Assembly: GCA_964187785.1 (NCBI GenBank)
Contig: OZ076409.1
Span: 16,432,001 to 16,496,000 of the forward strand
Length of the DNA: 64,000 bases
Origin: Amphiscolops sp. MND2022
Taxonomy: Eukaryota
Direction: 5' to 3'
Positions 37,223 to 63,441 of this stretch are shown here, piece by piece (positions within the stretch are counted from its first letter, which is position 1; each line of letters starts with the position of its first letter). A program made the translations under genes and the position numbers. The notes under the pieces are model-generated. The model did no database searches, was not told the origin of the DNA, and was given only the letters and a program-made list of their open reading frames with translations.

Positions 37223-37264
37223 ACTCTTTGCTTTTAGCCTAATTGTTGTGATAAACTTATTAAA
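37223..37264 (+). pseudogene. Exon part of the SL RNA gene interrupted by the retrotransposon
   Basis: Matches unit positions 159-200, then runs into element sequence with no donor. Confidence 0.75.
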
Positions 37265-37658
37265 AAGTCCTTTTAATAAGTTTGCTTGTACATCATTCGG
37301 TTAAGCAACCCATAGCTCTGTGCTATCATTCAAACTACCATTTTACAAACCCGTCGTGAAGCACCTAAGAAGCCATTCTTTCCTACGGGGGTCGCTGGCT
37401 AAGGTTTGATCTGCGTGGATATTCTTCCAACCGGCTCGTGTGTGGTCGCGTTAGTAGATCAAGCTGAGAAACCGAGACTGGTGCTTCCCAGCGTATTCGT
37501 GAGGTTGCGCTGAAGCTTTCTTGGCGGTCGGCTGGCAGGAGCCCTCAATAAACTGCCAGTTGTCCCAGCAGAGCTCTTCACAGCTGGCAGTGATAGATGC
37601 TCTGTTTCCCCCTAAAAACAAAACAACTCTTTCCCTTTTATTTCAACTGAACTAAAGA

Positions 37659-38852
37659 ATGGATTACGCAGCAGCAACAAAATCAAGCGAAACAACAGAA
37701 GACTACCTCCCCCCACTTCTGTTTGTACTTCCAATCACTAAAGAAGATTTCAACACTCCGAACGGAATTATTGACATCTTCGTTAAACTCTGTACGACAC
37801 TCTTAGCAAAACTACCATGTGAGGCTAGAACGAAAACGGTCATACAACGAGTAACATACGGATTCAAGAAATTGAAGGCAGTCAAAGTAAACTTGCCAAC
37901 TTCTTGTCAGAACGTACAAAACGAAATGCTCGGCATGGGGCTAGAATGTGGGAACAAAACGGTATGGCCGGTGCGAGACGACCGAACCTACAGATTCTAC
38001 CCGTGCAATGTCAGCATCAAGATTCAAAATGCCCTGCCCAATCTGACCAACGAAGAAATCAAGAACGAACTGAAACTACCCGAAGGCATTACTGCGAACG
38101 ACGACTTGAACTTCAAAACAGTCAGCATTGGGCCGTACATGAAAGTCTTTGATGGAACAGCGACAATCTCTGCCACTGTTCAGTCTGCCGAGCAAATGGA
38201 AGAAATGAAAAACTGGTCGCGCAAAGCTTTCTTTGAAGAAAAACAAGTTAGAAATCAAGTGACTCAGATGTATGCTCCTAACATCATGACATGTACTTTC
38301 TGTGAAAAGAAAGGCTCCTTCTACAGAGGTCATGATGACACTTGGTGCACAAAGAAAACGAAAGAAGAACGCGAACTGAAAAAAAAAGCGAAGGCGATCG
38401 AAGACGAAGGCGACGTCTTCACAGCCGACGAACAAAGTGTACACAACGAACAAATCGCAAAAATTAGAAACGACAGCTGTGCATCAACATCAAGCAGAAA
38501 TAATAAAAGACGACGCAGCACACCAAAGCGCGCCAACTCGGAAAAAAACCCACGACTCAGTGCGAGACAGCGAACCAGCCAAATACCAAAGATGAAAGCA
38601 AAAGCTCAAAATGAGAACAAACCCGAACAAAAAGAAAGTACAAGTCAAACTGCAAACAACAACAGTGATAACAATGACGAGAATGAAGAACAAGATACCA
38701 CAAGCACGAAGAACGCAGATACCGAAAACAGATTGCCGAAACCGCTGAACATGAGAGATTTTGTGGATGCAATGAATCCAATTCATCACATAGAAACAAA
38801 TGAAACAACAAACAACAACGTCAACGAAACAAACAATACGAAGACGAAATGA
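37659..38852 (+). CDS. Retrotransposon ORF1p, putative nucleic-acid-binding/gag-like protein (397 aa)
   Basis: Long ORF directly upstream of the RT ORF; knuckle-like CTFCEKKGSFYRGHDDTWC (C-x2-C-x9-H-x4-C); basic segment and low-complexity N/E/T-rich C-terminus. Confidence 0.85.
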   Translation: MDYAAATKSSETTEDYLPPLLFVLPITKEDFNTPNGIIDIFVKLCTTLLAKLPCEARTKTVIQRVTYGFKKLKAVKVNLPTSCQNVQNEMLGMGLECGNKTVWPVRDDRTYRFYPCNVSIKIQNALPNLTNEEIKNELKLPEGITANDDLNFKTVSIGPYMKVFDGTATISATVQSAEQMEEMKNWSRKAFFEEKQVRNQVTQMYAPNIMTCTFCEKKGSFYRGHDDTWCTKKTKEERELKKKAKAIEDEGDVFTADEQSVHNEQIAKIRNDSCASTSSRNNKRRRSTPKRANSEKNPRLSARQRTSQIPKMKAKAQNENKPEQKESTSQTANNNSDNNDENEEQDTTSTKNADTENRLPKPLNMRDFVDAMNPIHHIETNETTNNNVNETNNTKTK

Positions 38853-41800
38853 CGACGCCCAACATTGTTAGTTTCAATTGTAGGGGTCTTGGCAATCCCT
38901 TGAAACTCACAAGCCTAATTGCAAATACTGACATCAACAATGACGTCATTGCAATTCAAGAAACTAAAATGAAAAAACTAAAGAAAAAACATTTGAAAAT
39001 ACTCGAGTCCTACGACATGAATTACGTAATCAGCCCATGCGACAAATCAAAAGCGGGCGGCCTGCTGCTTTTGTTCAAAGCAAAACATAACGTAGAGTTG
39101 GTTACCCAAAACAAGTCTTTTCAAATTATAAAGATGTCAAACCAAGCCACTGAAACAAAGATGGCCAATGTTTACATATGCCCCAGCTGGAGTATAAGCA
39201 AAATCAATGAAGAACTTGAAGACCTGAAACTCAACTTGGAATCAAAGCATCTCAGGCATATTGAACCATGTGTAATAGTTGGTGACTTGAATTGTTTCGA
39301 TGACGTCACAAGAAACAAACATCCTCAATATGCAAAACACAAAGTTATACTGAAAGCGTTTGAAAAAATGGGCTTGATGGACATGGCAGTGAAGCTTGAG
39401 AATATCGAGAACACACACTTCGCGCCAGCCCAAAAACCATCGCGCCTGGATTATATCTTCTCAAATGTTGTGAGTCAGAAACAAGAAATCAGAACGATCA
39501 AGACATGCTTCTCAGATCACCGAATTTTGCGCCTGTCAAGCAAGCATAAGGCCGAGCAAGGTCAAAAGATCTTTAGAATGGATGACACAACTGTTGATGA
39601 AAACGTCAAAACCCTGAAAACGCTGATTTCACAAACAAATGGCTTGACCGGTGAACAGCTAGCGAATGATGCGTATCTCACAATGAAAAATGAGATTTCC
39701 AACTTTCTAAGACAAGCTAGCATATGGAGAGCAAGAAATAACAAAGACAGACTGCTCAAGGGGCCCGACGCAGAAGCTGAGCAGAATCTTGCAAAAAGAA
39801 TGCTAGCAGCAGTGAAGGTCAAATGCACTGACCTGAATGAAGGAAACTTGAAGATTGTTAAAAAGTACTGCTCTGACAATGCAAACAACCAAAGCAACGC
39901 GATCAAGAAGCTGAAAACACAGAAAGATCGAATTGTCTCAAGTGAGAATGAGATCATAGATGAAGTTACAAAGTACTACAGTAAGCTCTACGCCAACGAA
40001 CCAATTGATGAGAAGAAACAAGAGTGCCTCATCACAAACTTCAAAAAACAGATCTCTGAAGATGAAAGAGAACGTCTAACTCAGCAAATCACCCTAGACG
40101 AGATCAAAAATGCGATTGACAATCTGAACAAAGAAAGCGCGCCAGGCCCAGATGGACTAACCCCAAAACTGTTTCAAACGTTCAAGGAAGAATTCAGTCT
40201 TATGTTTCAAAAGATGTTTGAACATGCTGCAGACGGTAACAACTTACCAATGGCATTCAACCAAGCCTTCATTAGACTACTTCCGAAAAGTGGTGATCTG
40301 ACAACATTGAAGAACTGGAGACCAATAAGCCTGATCAACACTGACAGCAAGATTTTTTCAGCAGTAATTGCAAACCGAATGAAAAGTAGCCTCCGCGAAA
40401 TCATCCACCCAGATCAATGCGCATATTTGAAAGGCAGACAAATGTCAAACGCCACACTGCTACTAAAATCTCTGTGCACAAACAAAAGAATGAAAAAAAC
40501 TTTGACACTAGCTGGACTCGACTTCAGCAAAGCCTTCGACAGGGTAGATCGTTCGTACTTGCTGAAACTTATAAAACATGTGGGATTCCCTCCCAACATA
40601 TACAACATGATAGAGCAACTGTACAAAGATACACGATCTAACGTTCTAGTCAACTCCTTCATCACAAGACGAATACAGCAAGAAAGAGGAGTGAAACAAG
40701 GATGCCCAGTCTCAGCTCTTTTGTTCATCCTAGCTATTGAGCCATTGCTTGAACTACTGAGATCGTCATCGAGCCTGACTGGAATCGCAAAAGGAAAATT
40801 GAAGAAAAAAATCATTGCATATGCTGATGACGTCACAATGTTAGTTGAGAATGAAGAACAACTGAAGCAAGCAATTCAAACAGTTGAAGACTTTGGCAAA
40901 AGCACCCAATTCGCCTTGAACGCTGACAAAACGGAACAGTTTGACCTGAATCGAAGAAATGAAGATCAAAAGATCAAACTCCTCGGTTTGTATTTGTTCA
41001 GCAACCAAAAAAGTGAAAAGCAGCACTACCAGCAACAACTGATCCAAGAAAGCGAAAGAGCAAAGAAAGTGTGTAGACCATCAATGTCGATGAAAACTAA
41101 AAGTTGCGTCATGAAAGCCTTCGTAATGCCAAAAATAGTGTTCCATGCGAAAGCCTCAAACTGTGATCGAGCAACTTGGAAAAAAGTTCAACGAAACCTA
41201 AAACAAGGACTTCACAACAATAGGAGCAATCAGATTTCAGAACGCCTTCTTTTTCAAAGCACCAATGAAGGCGGTGTTGGCTTCCCATGCGTGAAGACCT
41301 ATGCAAGCACTTCTTTTCTGATGGATGTGTGGAGAGCAGTTTTCCACAATGACGATCACTTTATTGCACTCGAAATCAAAGAAGCAGTAGAAGACGAGAA
41401 AAGTTACGTTCACAGCAAACTGAAACAAATGAAAACGATAACGAAAGCGCGAGCGATAACTTTCAAGCGAGAACACATAGAGTTTGTGACAAGTGAAGGA
41501 CTAACAAAAATCCCTGCTACTTCAAAAGCAATATACGCCTTTGCAATCCGCCGACAGCATGCAGACTTCGTAGATGAAAGAATCATGAAAGCGGGATCAA
41601 AACTTCAAACAGCACCCCAACAACTTCTGTACACACTCAAAGCAATTTGGAGAAGCAACAAACTGAACCCTGTTCAACGAGACGTTTTCTATAATTTCAG
41701 TTTCAATCTTTACCGAGACAAAGTATTCCTCCATGCAGCTGGCTACAAGTCTGATGATGACTGTTTCCTTTGCGGAGCAAGTAAACAAACACATGAGCAT

Positions 41801-42016
41801 CTGATCCTAGATTGTCAAAAAACAAAGCAGATTGCTGAAACCCTTGGAATTCGCAGCATGAAAGATCTGTACCAGCAGGCAGAACAAGACACATGGAAAA
41901 AAGTGAGATTCGTAACAACTCTGCTCATATGTTCATGGACCGACAACAAGCAAGAAGTGGAACAAATGATTCACAACTTTCCCATCACTACCAAGCAAGT
42001 TGGCACAGTGGCTTAG
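38849..42016 (+). CDS. Retrotransposon ORF2p: APE-type endonuclease + reverse transcriptase + C-terminal CCHC zinc finger (1055 aa)
   Basis: APE motifs SFNCRGL, IQETK, GDLN, RLDYIF, SDH. RT motifs SAPGPDG, NWRPISL, LDFSKAFDRV, GVKQGCPVS, YADD. EGGVGFP motif and CFLCGASKQTHEHLILDC near the C-terminus, as in L1/Tx1 elements. Confidence 0.97.
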   Translation: MTTPNIVSFNCRGLGNPLKLTSLIANTDINNDVIAIQETKMKKLKKKHLKILESYDMNYVISPCDKSKAGGLLLLFKAKHNVELVTQNKSFQIIKMSNQATETKMANVYICPSWSISKINEELEDLKLNLESKHLRHIEPCVIVGDLNCFDDVTRNKHPQYAKHKVILKAFEKMGLMDMAVKLENIENTHFAPAQKPSRLDYIFSNVVSQKQEIRTIKTCFSDHRILRLSSKHKAEQGQKIFRMDDTTVDENVKTLKTLISQTNGLTGEQLANDAYLTMKNEISNFLRQASIWRARNNKDRLLKGPDAEAEQNLAKRMLAAVKVKCTDLNEGNLKIVKKYCSDNANNQSNAIKKLKTQKDRIVSSENEIIDEVTKYYSKLYANEPIDEKKQECLITNFKKQISEDERERLTQQITLDEIKNAIDNLNKESAPGPDGLTPKLFQTFKEEFSLMFQKMFEHAADGNNLPMAFNQAFIRLLPKSGDLTTLKNWRPISLINTDSKIFSAVIANRMKSSLREIIHPDQCAYLKGRQMSNATLLLKSLCTNKRMKKTLTLAGLDFSKAFDRVDRSYLLKLIKHVGFPPNIYNMIEQLYKDTRSNVLVNSFITRRIQQERGVKQGCPVSALLFILAIEPLLELLRSSSSLTGIAKGKLKKKIIAYADDVTMLVENEEQLKQAIQTVEDFGKSTQFALNADKTEQFDLNRRNEDQKIKLLGLYLFSNQKSEKQHYQQQLIQESERAKKVCRPSMSMKTKSCVMKAFVMPKIVFHAKASNCDRATWKKVQRNLKQGLHNNRSNQISERLLFQSTNEGGVGFPCVKTYASTSFLMDVWRAVFHNDDHFIALEIKEAVEDEKSYVHSKLKQMKTITKARAITFKREHIEFVTSEGLTKIPATSKAIYAFAIRRQHADFVDERIMKAGSKLQTAPQQLLYTLKAIWRSNKLNPVQRDVFYNFSFNLYRDKVFLHAAGYKSDDDCFLCGASKQTHEHLILDCQKTKQIAETLGIRSMKDLYQQAEQDTWKKVRFVTTLLICSWTDNKQEVEQMIHNFPITTKQVGTVA

Positions 42017-42107
42017 CCAAAGACCATGAGTCAAACAAACGAGGTTCGAACCTCTGACGGAACCAAGACACAAACATGAAAAAAACTCTTTTACCTTATT
42101 GTTTGAA

Positions 42108-42186
42108 AGGTAAGTATTCCAACCCTATTGATAAGTTTTATTTGAAAGCAGACTGCGAAAGTGGTCTGCTGCCCAATTTTTGAACA
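42108..42186 (+). pseudogene. Donor and intron part of the interrupted SL RNA gene
   Basis: AG|GTAAGT, stem-loop II and Sm site (42175-42183) are intact downstream of the element. Confidence 0.75.
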
Positions 42187-42304: not shown

Positions 42305-42423
42305 GGCTACGACCATACCATGTTGAATGCACCGGTTCTCGTCCGATCACCGAAGTTAAACAACATAGGGCCTGGTTAGTACTTGGATGGGAGACCGCTT
42401 GGGAACACCAGGTGTTGTAGCCT
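42305..42423 (+). rRNA. 5S rRNA
   Basis: Copy of 399-517; intact gene of the retrotransposon-bearing unit. Confidence 0.97.
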
Positions 42424-54175: not shown

Positions 54176-54777
54176 TTTTTGTCAGAAATGTGGTTTAACT
54201 TCGGTGACAGTTTTGCAAAAGGGGTCAAATTGAAAAGATAGCACAAAACGGACAACGCCATCAGAAAGAGCGTCCAAAAAAACCCCCATGCTGAAATTTT
54301 CGCCGCCATCACTTGAATTTTCATTGAGTTATGTCATTTTTACTATTTTCACAAAATGTGGTTTAACTTCGGTGACAGTTTTGCAAAAGGGGTCAAAATG
54401 AACAGATAGCAAAAAACGGACAACGGCATTGGAAAGAGGGCCCAAAATTACCCCTAAAACGTGTTTTTCACACTCCTGAGTCGACTTTTGATAATACATG
54501 GAATTTCATTTTTAAGCTTACTAATTTATGCTTTTCAGCATACATTTTCGTAATAGAGTCAAAATTTTGCTTTCTCACAATTTTTCTGGAATATTTTTGT
54601 TTCATCAGATGTCAATAACTTGAAACGTCGTCTTTTCATGAGAATTTCTCCTCAAAACAAGTTGTTGGCTGGTAATGGTAAGTCCGTACCGCAGATAGGA
54701 GTCTCGCGCTCCAAAAATTGACTCTTTGCTTTTAGCCTAATTGTTGTGATAAACTTATTAAATAGGTAAGTATTCCA

Positions 54778-54873
54778 TTTTTGGAGTATATCTTGCCTGT
54801 TTGAGGTGTGAGTCGCAGCAATCATAGGTCCAAAACCAGTAACCAAAAACCAACCTGTACTTACTTGTTTGAA
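54778..54873 (+). mobile_element. 96-bp retro-insertion in SL RNA gene (5'-truncated sister LINE or SINE-like), copy 1
   Basis: Flanked by the 14-bp duplication AGGTAAGTATTCCA (54764-54777 and 54874-54887); ends TTGTTTGAA at the same host base as the full-length element. Confidence 0.85.
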
Positions 54874-55068
54874 AGGTAAGTATTCCAACCCTATTGATAA
54901 GTTTTATTTGAAAGCAGACTGCGAAAGGTCTGCTGCCCAATTTTTGAACAAGGAACAAGCTAGTCTGCACTAACTTAAAAGTTACGCGTATTTTGACCGA
55001 GAAAATTTTCGTATCATTGTACGTAATTTTGTTGTTAAGCATATAAAGCTATTGATTTTACAATGATC

Positions 55069-56693: not shown

Positions 56694-56789
56694 TTTTTGG
56701 AGTATATCTTGCCTGTTTGAGGTGTGAGTCGCAGCAATCATAGGTCCAAAACCAGTAACCAAAAACCAACCTGTACTTACTTGTTTGAA
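56694..56789 (+). mobile_element. 96-bp retro-insertion in SL RNA gene, copy 2
   Basis: Same sequence and 14-bp duplication as copy 1. Confidence 0.85.
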
Positions 56790-57705: not shown

Positions 57706-57801
57706 TTTTTGGAGTATATCTTGCCTGTTTGAGGTGTGAGTCGCAGCAATCATAGGTCCAAAACCAGTAACCAAAAACCAACCTGTACTTACTTGTTTGA
57801 A
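57706..57801 (+). mobile_element. 96-bp retro-insertion in SL RNA gene, copy 3
   Basis: Same sequence and 14-bp duplication as copy 1. Confidence 0.85.
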
Positions 57802-59621: not shown

Positions 59622-59717
59622 TTTTTGGAGTATATCTTGCCTGTTTGAGGTGTGAGTCGCAGCAATCATAGGTCCAAAACCAGTAACCAAAAACCAACCT
59701 GTACTTACTTGTTTGAA
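59622..59717 (+). mobile_element. 96-bp retro-insertion in SL RNA gene, copy 4
   Basis: Same sequence and 14-bp duplication as copy 1. Confidence 0.85.
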
Positions 59718-63345: not shown

Positions 63346-63441
63346 TTTTTGGAGTATATCTTGCCTGTTTGAGGTGTGAGTCGCAGCAATCATAGGTCCA
63401 AAACCAGTAACCAAAAACCAACCTGTACTTACTTGTTTGAA
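63346..63441 (+). mobile_element. 96-bp retro-insertion in SL RNA gene, copy 5 (no linked 2-bp deletion)
   Basis: Same insert and duplication; downstream stem-loop II is wild type. Confidence 0.85.

Follow-up and report, generated by a model that had tools for sequence, protein, structure and literature searches.

Elements of the CRE/SLACS and NeSL groups insert site-specifically into SL genes, and co-transcription has been proposed for them; in the sections available from two accounts, they have a single ORF and a restriction-like endonuclease (PMC3636483, PMC4640811). Tx1-clade LINEs, whose targets include U2, U5 and 5S genes, carry two ORFs with APE and RT and insert strictly into multicopy small-RNA genes, again as far as the available sections describe them (PMC4494074, PMC4640811). 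Tx1 elements mobilise SINEU, short SINEs with heads derived from U1 or U2 for which reliance on flanking transcription has been proposed (PMC4494074, in part). Here we describe a LINE (LINE-B) and a short SINE that reside in SL genes within a 64,000-nucleotide stretch of Amphiscolops sp. MND2022 (the window). LINE-B shares its site-specificity for SL genes with CRE/SLACS and NeSL. Its two ORFs, the position of APE before RT and its sequence-specific insertion into a multicopy small-RNA gene are those of Tx1 elements, and it works like a Tx1-type target-specific LINE, a likeness of layout. We rejected its classification as a CRE/NeSL element, because the two ORFs and the APE point to an independent origin.

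The window consists of 904-bp units repeated in tandem and contains 65 5S rRNA genes. Among its 64 complete units, 58 are plain, one has a 4.8-kb insertion and five have a 96-bp insertion. The second gene of each unit is an SL RNA gene: it has a GT donor, stem-loops and an Sm-like site, and its 31-nt exon matches the acoel leader given in the accessible part of a published study (PMC9911081). In all three RNA runs, contigs follow the gene up to the exon end (54765) and then continue in unrelated sequence, as expected of a leader carried on mRNAs. As originally predicted, the target of both elements is therefore the SL splice donor, which is invariant in the genome sampled. In the plain SL RNA, this donor is predicted to be 0.34 paired (positions +1 to +6), and an alternative fold, 2.2 kcal/mol above the minimum free energy (-25.7 vs -27.9), pairs it with ACTTATT of the exon. 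Two runs (X2 and X4, aligned to 54741-54777) contained variant SL introns of other animals with the same exon end and donor. An SmY-like match on the minus strand (54689-54765), weak at E 7 and accompanied by an Sm-like site, overlaps the SL promoter region and is probably due to chance.

The genome sample comprised parts of the arrays on C1, C12 and C13 together with unplaced contigs. These stretches contained 383 intact SL genes. Insertions before the exon (site A) numbered 53, and a further 68 non-host junctions preceded an intron; of the latter, 63 belong to LINE-B (32) or to its short partner (31), all ending in TGTTTGAA at the same base. Both elements insert 2 nt upstream of the donor, and the 32 sampled LINE 3' ends stop at one identical base. 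The site-A arrays (C1:16.2-16.7 Mb, C12:56.1-56.7 Mb and C13:13.1-13.3 Mb of G000) hold LINE families at the SL transcription start, with ~25% identity to LINE-B in the C-terminal part of ORF2, and derivatives of 1.6-2 kb; their insertions duplicate ~15 nt and leave the whole SL gene downstream. A scan of public metagenomes returned 53 loci, two of which were SL genes, neither with a donor-site insertion. One metagenome contig (L235, 3508 bp) carries a site-A-type LINE tail upstream of an SL gene.

Table 1 Features of the SL-5S array and its two donor-site elements in the window.
Feature	Positions	Strand	Remark
LINE: SL exon nt 1-28 as 5' end	37237..37264	+	fused with host exon; donor absent
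LINE: predicted 12-bp hairpin	37254..37282	+	exon copy and LINE head; replaces host stem I and donor
LINE-B	37265..42107	+	non-LTR retrotransposon targeting the SL donor
ORF1	37659..38852	+	397 aa; no Pfam match
ORF2	38849..42016	+	APE endonuclease, RT, C-terminal zinc motif (zf-RVT under cut-off)
LINE tail	42090..42107	+	weak anti-donor TTTACCTT and terminal TTGTTTGAA common to SINE
Regenerated donor (AG/GTAAGT), SL intron, Sm-like site	42108..42184	+	downstream of LINE; Sm-like AATTTTTGAA at 42175
5S rRNA gene	42305..42423	+	one of 65 in window
Intact 31-nt SL exon	54735..54765	+	likely 5' end of SINE RNA
14-bp target duplication, 5' copy	54764..54777	+	holds upstream donor
SINE body	54778..54873	+	96 bp
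SINE: antisense arm	54782..54829	+	predicted pairing with SL exon and upstream donor
SINE tail	54857..54872	+	16-nt antisense (4 G-U) to empty exon/donor junction
3' target duplication, downstream donor, SL intron	54874..54948	+	Sm-like site at 54939
SINE copy 2	56694..56789	+	
SINE copy 3	57706..57801	+	
SINE copy 4	59622..59717	+	
SINE copy 5	63346..63441	+	without the 2-nt stem II deletion of copies 1-4

The 5' ends of LINE-B incorporate the SL exon. Among 22 full-length copies, 13 are fused to the host exon, four carry a distinct copy of the exon after a target duplication, and five show other arrangements. The exon copy stops three bases short of the donor; an inverted segment comes next, with which it is predicted to form a 12-bp hairpin. 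An older LINE copy on C5 has kept the stem of this hairpin with a different loop. Donor sequences were not significantly depleted across LINE-B as a whole (3 seen vs 6.6 expected, P 0.12). The region of C5 concerned (G000:C5:70.34-70.43 Mb; L141, L199-L202) is a decayed SL-5S array with older LINE-B relatives. The donor-like flank of L141 was considered as a 3' transduction, an option rejected on account of its location within this decayed array.

The SINE is short (95-113 bp) and non-coding, is flanked by target duplications and shares its 3' tail with a LINE. We found neither a tRNA, 5S or 7SL head with an internal Pol III promoter nor a head from U1 or U2 snRNA, and no Rfam match over its body at E<=10. 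From the identical site and tail, we infer that it is mobilised in trans by LINE-B. A 2-nt deletion in the flanking stem II is common to four of the five window copies and absent from 464 other genes, so these copies probably derive from one insertion amplified by recombination. Among 32 short copies, the 5' duplication is 14 nt long in 9 and 16-17 nt long in 21, a pattern to be expected were its length fixed per subfamily, and one that counts towards carriage of the exon. The 113-bp variant, which accounts for 22 of 31 sampled copies, has a segment of 14 nt perfectly complementary to the downstream intron; with this segment, the RNA is predicted to re-form host stem I and enclose the masked donor.

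Two old copies bear on the start of the SINE RNA. One off-target SINE (L164) has exon nt 1 as its first base and includes the donor, and in L178 the exon is present in decayed form. Together with the exon copies at LINE 5' ends, these DNA copies suggest that both RNAs begin at the SL start, the SINE RNA likely with the whole SL exon and donor. The L164 site (L164:1431-2246) resembles a cis-intron donor, apparently that of a protein gene, with an upstream open exon lacking a Pfam match; there the 5' duplication regenerates the donor, and another element interrupts the SINE. In the predicted RNA of the window SINE, a 48-nt arm pairs with the exon and upstream donor in a hairpin of -43.1 kcal/mol; folding the opposite strand gives -14.0 and folding the sequence as DNA -12.1. 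Both donors of full-length variants are predicted to be 0.97-1.0 paired over +1 to +6, vs the 0.34 of the host RNA.

The arm is a composite. Over its first 13 nt, 7/7 copies resemble the tail more than they do perfect antisense; over the next 9 nt, 5/7 (with two ties) are nearer to a donor junction, and over the following 9 nt, 7/7 are nearer to exon antisense. The distal part of the arm is antisense to exon nt 1-14. Judged by its sequence, the arm comprises an older copy of the tail, the decayed remains of a donor junction and an antisense of the exon 5' end, so that the SINE looks like two successive short insertions with added antisense sequence. The internal tail copy, which has no terminal role, still pairs. 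An insertion of ~12 nt consisting of the tail only, upstream of an SL intron (L214, G000:C917:60608), offers a model for the origin of the SINE. A test for G-U pairs gave 15 vs 6 over all copies (p 0.07) and 10/10 for shared changes (p 0.005); we set it aside because the composite origin of the arm confounds it.

At their 3' ends, both elements can pair with the downstream donor. Re-reading the sequence bore out the two predicted stems: TTTACCTT of the LINE (42090-42097) pairs with 42107-42114 in 8 bp with one G-U and a 9-nt loop, while GTACTTACTT of the SINE (54857-54866), the first 10 nt of its tail, would pair with 54874-54883 upon read-through in 10 bp with two G-U and a 7-nt loop. The tails had been taken to differ and yet to pair independently. 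They align, however, as CTTA(T/C)(T)TGTTTGAA and are by sequence homologous, the usual common end of a LINE and its partner, for which reason independent convergence was rejected. The likeness of TACTTAC to the donor-pairing end of U1 snRNA holds for the 7-mer, since this is the complement of a consensus donor, but not for an origin from U1: the tail complement runs on into the SL exon with no further U1 homology, and the only U1 match (E 9.4) lies on the host minus strand.

Pairing exceeded chance for the SINE and was marginal for the LINE. As nulls, we used 318 windows of the 3' UTRs of other LINEs and 400 shuffles. None of these (0/318, 0/400) equalled the SINE downstream donor, with a pairing probability of 0.97-1.0. 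For the LINE donor, folded with the downstream intron, the probability was 0.50 (-5.5 kcal/mol), a value equalled by 26/399, 39/318 and 35/400 nulls (6.5-12%), and the significance of this stem is marginal. When site-A tails were swapped in, 1 of 18 would mask the donor (P at least 0.5). Among older 3' ends, the stem survives in the tails of three of four old SINE copies, but L163 has mostly lost it (P 0.04) and a decayed older relative of LINE-B is without it (P 0.07).

The SINE tail is also complementary to the empty target, forming a predicted duplex of -16.8 kcal/mol that spans the insertion point and was matched by 0/2392, 0/2508 and 0/3000 nulls. The duplex is weaker for the tails of 95- and 113-bp SINEs (-12.4 kcal/mol) and for the LINE (-7.6 kcal/mol; 134/2392, 156/2508 and 300/3000 nulls, 5.6-10%), and ranges from -0.9 to -5.2 kcal/mol for 16 site-A tails. 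The register of the antisense is the same in the old copies L164 and L178, and its continuity is lost in the commonest SINE subfamily (22/31) and in the LINE.

Site-A and donor-site families end in opposite ways. Site-A families have an AATAAA-like hexamer (within one mismatch in 12/15 termini) and no anti-donor sequence, while the three donor-site termini have the anti-donor sequence and stand 3-4 mismatches away from AATAAA; neither AATAAA nor ATTAAA occurs in the last 300 nt of the LINE. The lack of a poly(A) signal makes read-through to the SL terminator plausible for donor-site elements. None of the RNA runs contained half of the sequence words searched, and no RNA contig covers the SINE body or the LINE, the contigs spanning the SL exon and intron alone. 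As these contigs come from other animals, the missing element RNA is no proof of absent transcription. One contig (X2 record 19) joins 6 nt of the element end to the intron, a length too small to count.

A tree built from 18 families of this one genome places LINE-B on a long branch together with two U5-gene families (94/94), where it adjoins the U1- and U2-gene families and is separate from the site-A families. Its named homologues are generic RT proteins, and the ORF2 relative P0002 is 44% identical. Related LINEs occupy U5 (L145, L147, L151), U1 (L157) and U2 genes (L149, L152), a radiation across spliceosomal RNA targets in a single genome. The tails of these sister families show little pairing with their respective targets (P 0.02-0.39). 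One U2-inserted family (L152:1864-1943) opens with a long, near-perfect hairpin just after the U2 fragment.

We propose that LINE and SINE RNAs driven by the SL promoter evade trans-splicing by removing the donors they carry or by pairing them, an explanation to which we assign an even chance. The insertion sites, the sequences and the exon carriage of DNA copies were observed, and the folds are predicted; promoter use, read-through and a selective benefit we infer. Both elements would likely be transcribed from the SL promoter. The LINE RNA would have its own exon copy end short of the donor, closed by the predicted hairpin, while the SINE RNA would retain exon and donor, buried in the long hairpin. 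If transcription reaches the SL 3' end, the SINE tail would add a stem of 9-10 bp over the regenerated donor, and the LINE tail would act as a homologous, weak version of it. In this way, the RNAs may escape both trans-splicing and U1 binding. The predicted donor pairing is strong in the SINE but weak in the LINE. The sequestration originally suggested gains support from the predicted upstream-donor hairpin of the SINE and the donor-less exon copy of the LINE, neither of them part of the original reading, but is marginal for the LINE stem. A short stem need not block splicing: natural SL donors usually lie inside stem-loop I (PMC6053224, in the part available), and with the host alternative fold this means that short stems alone are no proof of blocking. 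The tail is likely an RT-recognition motif as well, and recognition alone could conserve it.

If recognition were its sole function, the tail would be the RT-recognition end of the clade, with a chance likeness to the antisense of an AT-rich junction; tandem short insertions would have copied it twice into the SINE, transcripts would end at the element end and the 3' stem would have no role. A terminal T-rich/AAA motif common to SL-5'-end and U5 families agrees with this reading, as do the marginal LINE stem, the tail-like arm positions 0-12 in 7/7 copies and the 12-nt tail-only insertion. We nevertheless regard it as rather unlikely, because it accounts neither for the antisense to exon nt 1-14 in the distal arm nor for the anti-intron segment of 14 nt, the LINE 5' end without a donor and the missing poly(A) signal. 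The pairings could also rebuild SL stem-loop I, so that the RNA is processed as an SL particle with Sm binding, cap and 3' end formation, any splicing block being secondary or absent. For the LINE tail, such mimicry, also raised originally, is plausible: CTTATT of the tail would pair with the donor as ACTTATT does in the alternative host fold. Furthermore, host stem I is predicted to be restored by the 5' hairpin of the LINE and by the 113-bp variant, and stem II and the Sm site remain downstream. The 96-bp variant, however, does not rebuild stem I, four of five window copies have the stem II deletion, and the -43 kcal/mol hairpin far exceeds the host structure in strength, which renders this account doubtful.

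The complementarity to the empty site raises the question of RNA-assisted targeting, in which the 16-nt antisense tail would pair either with the top strand at the empty site or with nascent SL transcripts, and read-through sense RNA would anneal to the nicked primer strand. R1Bm requires downstream target RNA, as cited in the available part of PMC7265360. The -16.8 kcal/mol duplex unmatched by any null, its register in old copies and a LINE duplex stronger than those of all 16 site-A tails point in the same direction. Against these stand the loss of continuous register in the 22/31 subfamily and the LINE, a LINE value equalled by 5.6-10% of nulls and the site-specificity of U5, U1 and U2 sister families without such tails. 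Moreover, G-U-rich, AT-rich hybrids invade DNA poorly. We consider RNA-guided targeting unlikely. A combined scheme, in which guide-like LINE and SINE RNAs open or find the SL donor site by the 16-nt antisense and the sense target copy while the same hairpins shield them from trans-splicing, is in our estimate quite improbable.

Retroelements that target SL genes depend on a promoter whose transcript is made for cutting at the donor, and this one genome holds three apparent solutions: insertion before the exon with polyadenylation, deletion of the donor and base-pairing of the donor. The 96-bp SINE provides a minimal substrate for asking whether structure alone decides the use of a trans-splicing donor, and whether a site-specific APE LINE locates its target with the help of template RNA.

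No SL-headed SINE was found in a literature search within whose reach most subscription journals and Repbase did not fall. What is new here is a SINE RNA that likely carries the SL exon and donor and is predicted to fold them onto a 48-nt arm at -43 kcal/mol. LINE-B differs from Tx1 LINEs in its SL donor target, its borrowed SL exon 5' end, the absence of a poly(A) signal and its hairpin SINE partner. Its SINE is like SINEU in being short, in having an snRNA-type head and a Tx1-like LINE partner, and in its possible reliance on flanking transcription; unlike SINEU, its head is the SL exon with the donor, its body is largely antisense to its own head, and it returns into the gene of its own origin. 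As in R1Bm and SART1, sense target sequence past the 3' end could anneal to the primer (PMC7265360, accessible sections), although in the SL SINE and LINE-B the antisense tail is predicted to sequester it. The HIV-1 SD hairpin, in which a retroelement RNA masks a 5' splice site from U1 (PMC4974535, in part), resembles the SL SINE, with the difference that the SINE donor, whose masking is predicted, is a host-derived trans-splicing donor and is present twice.
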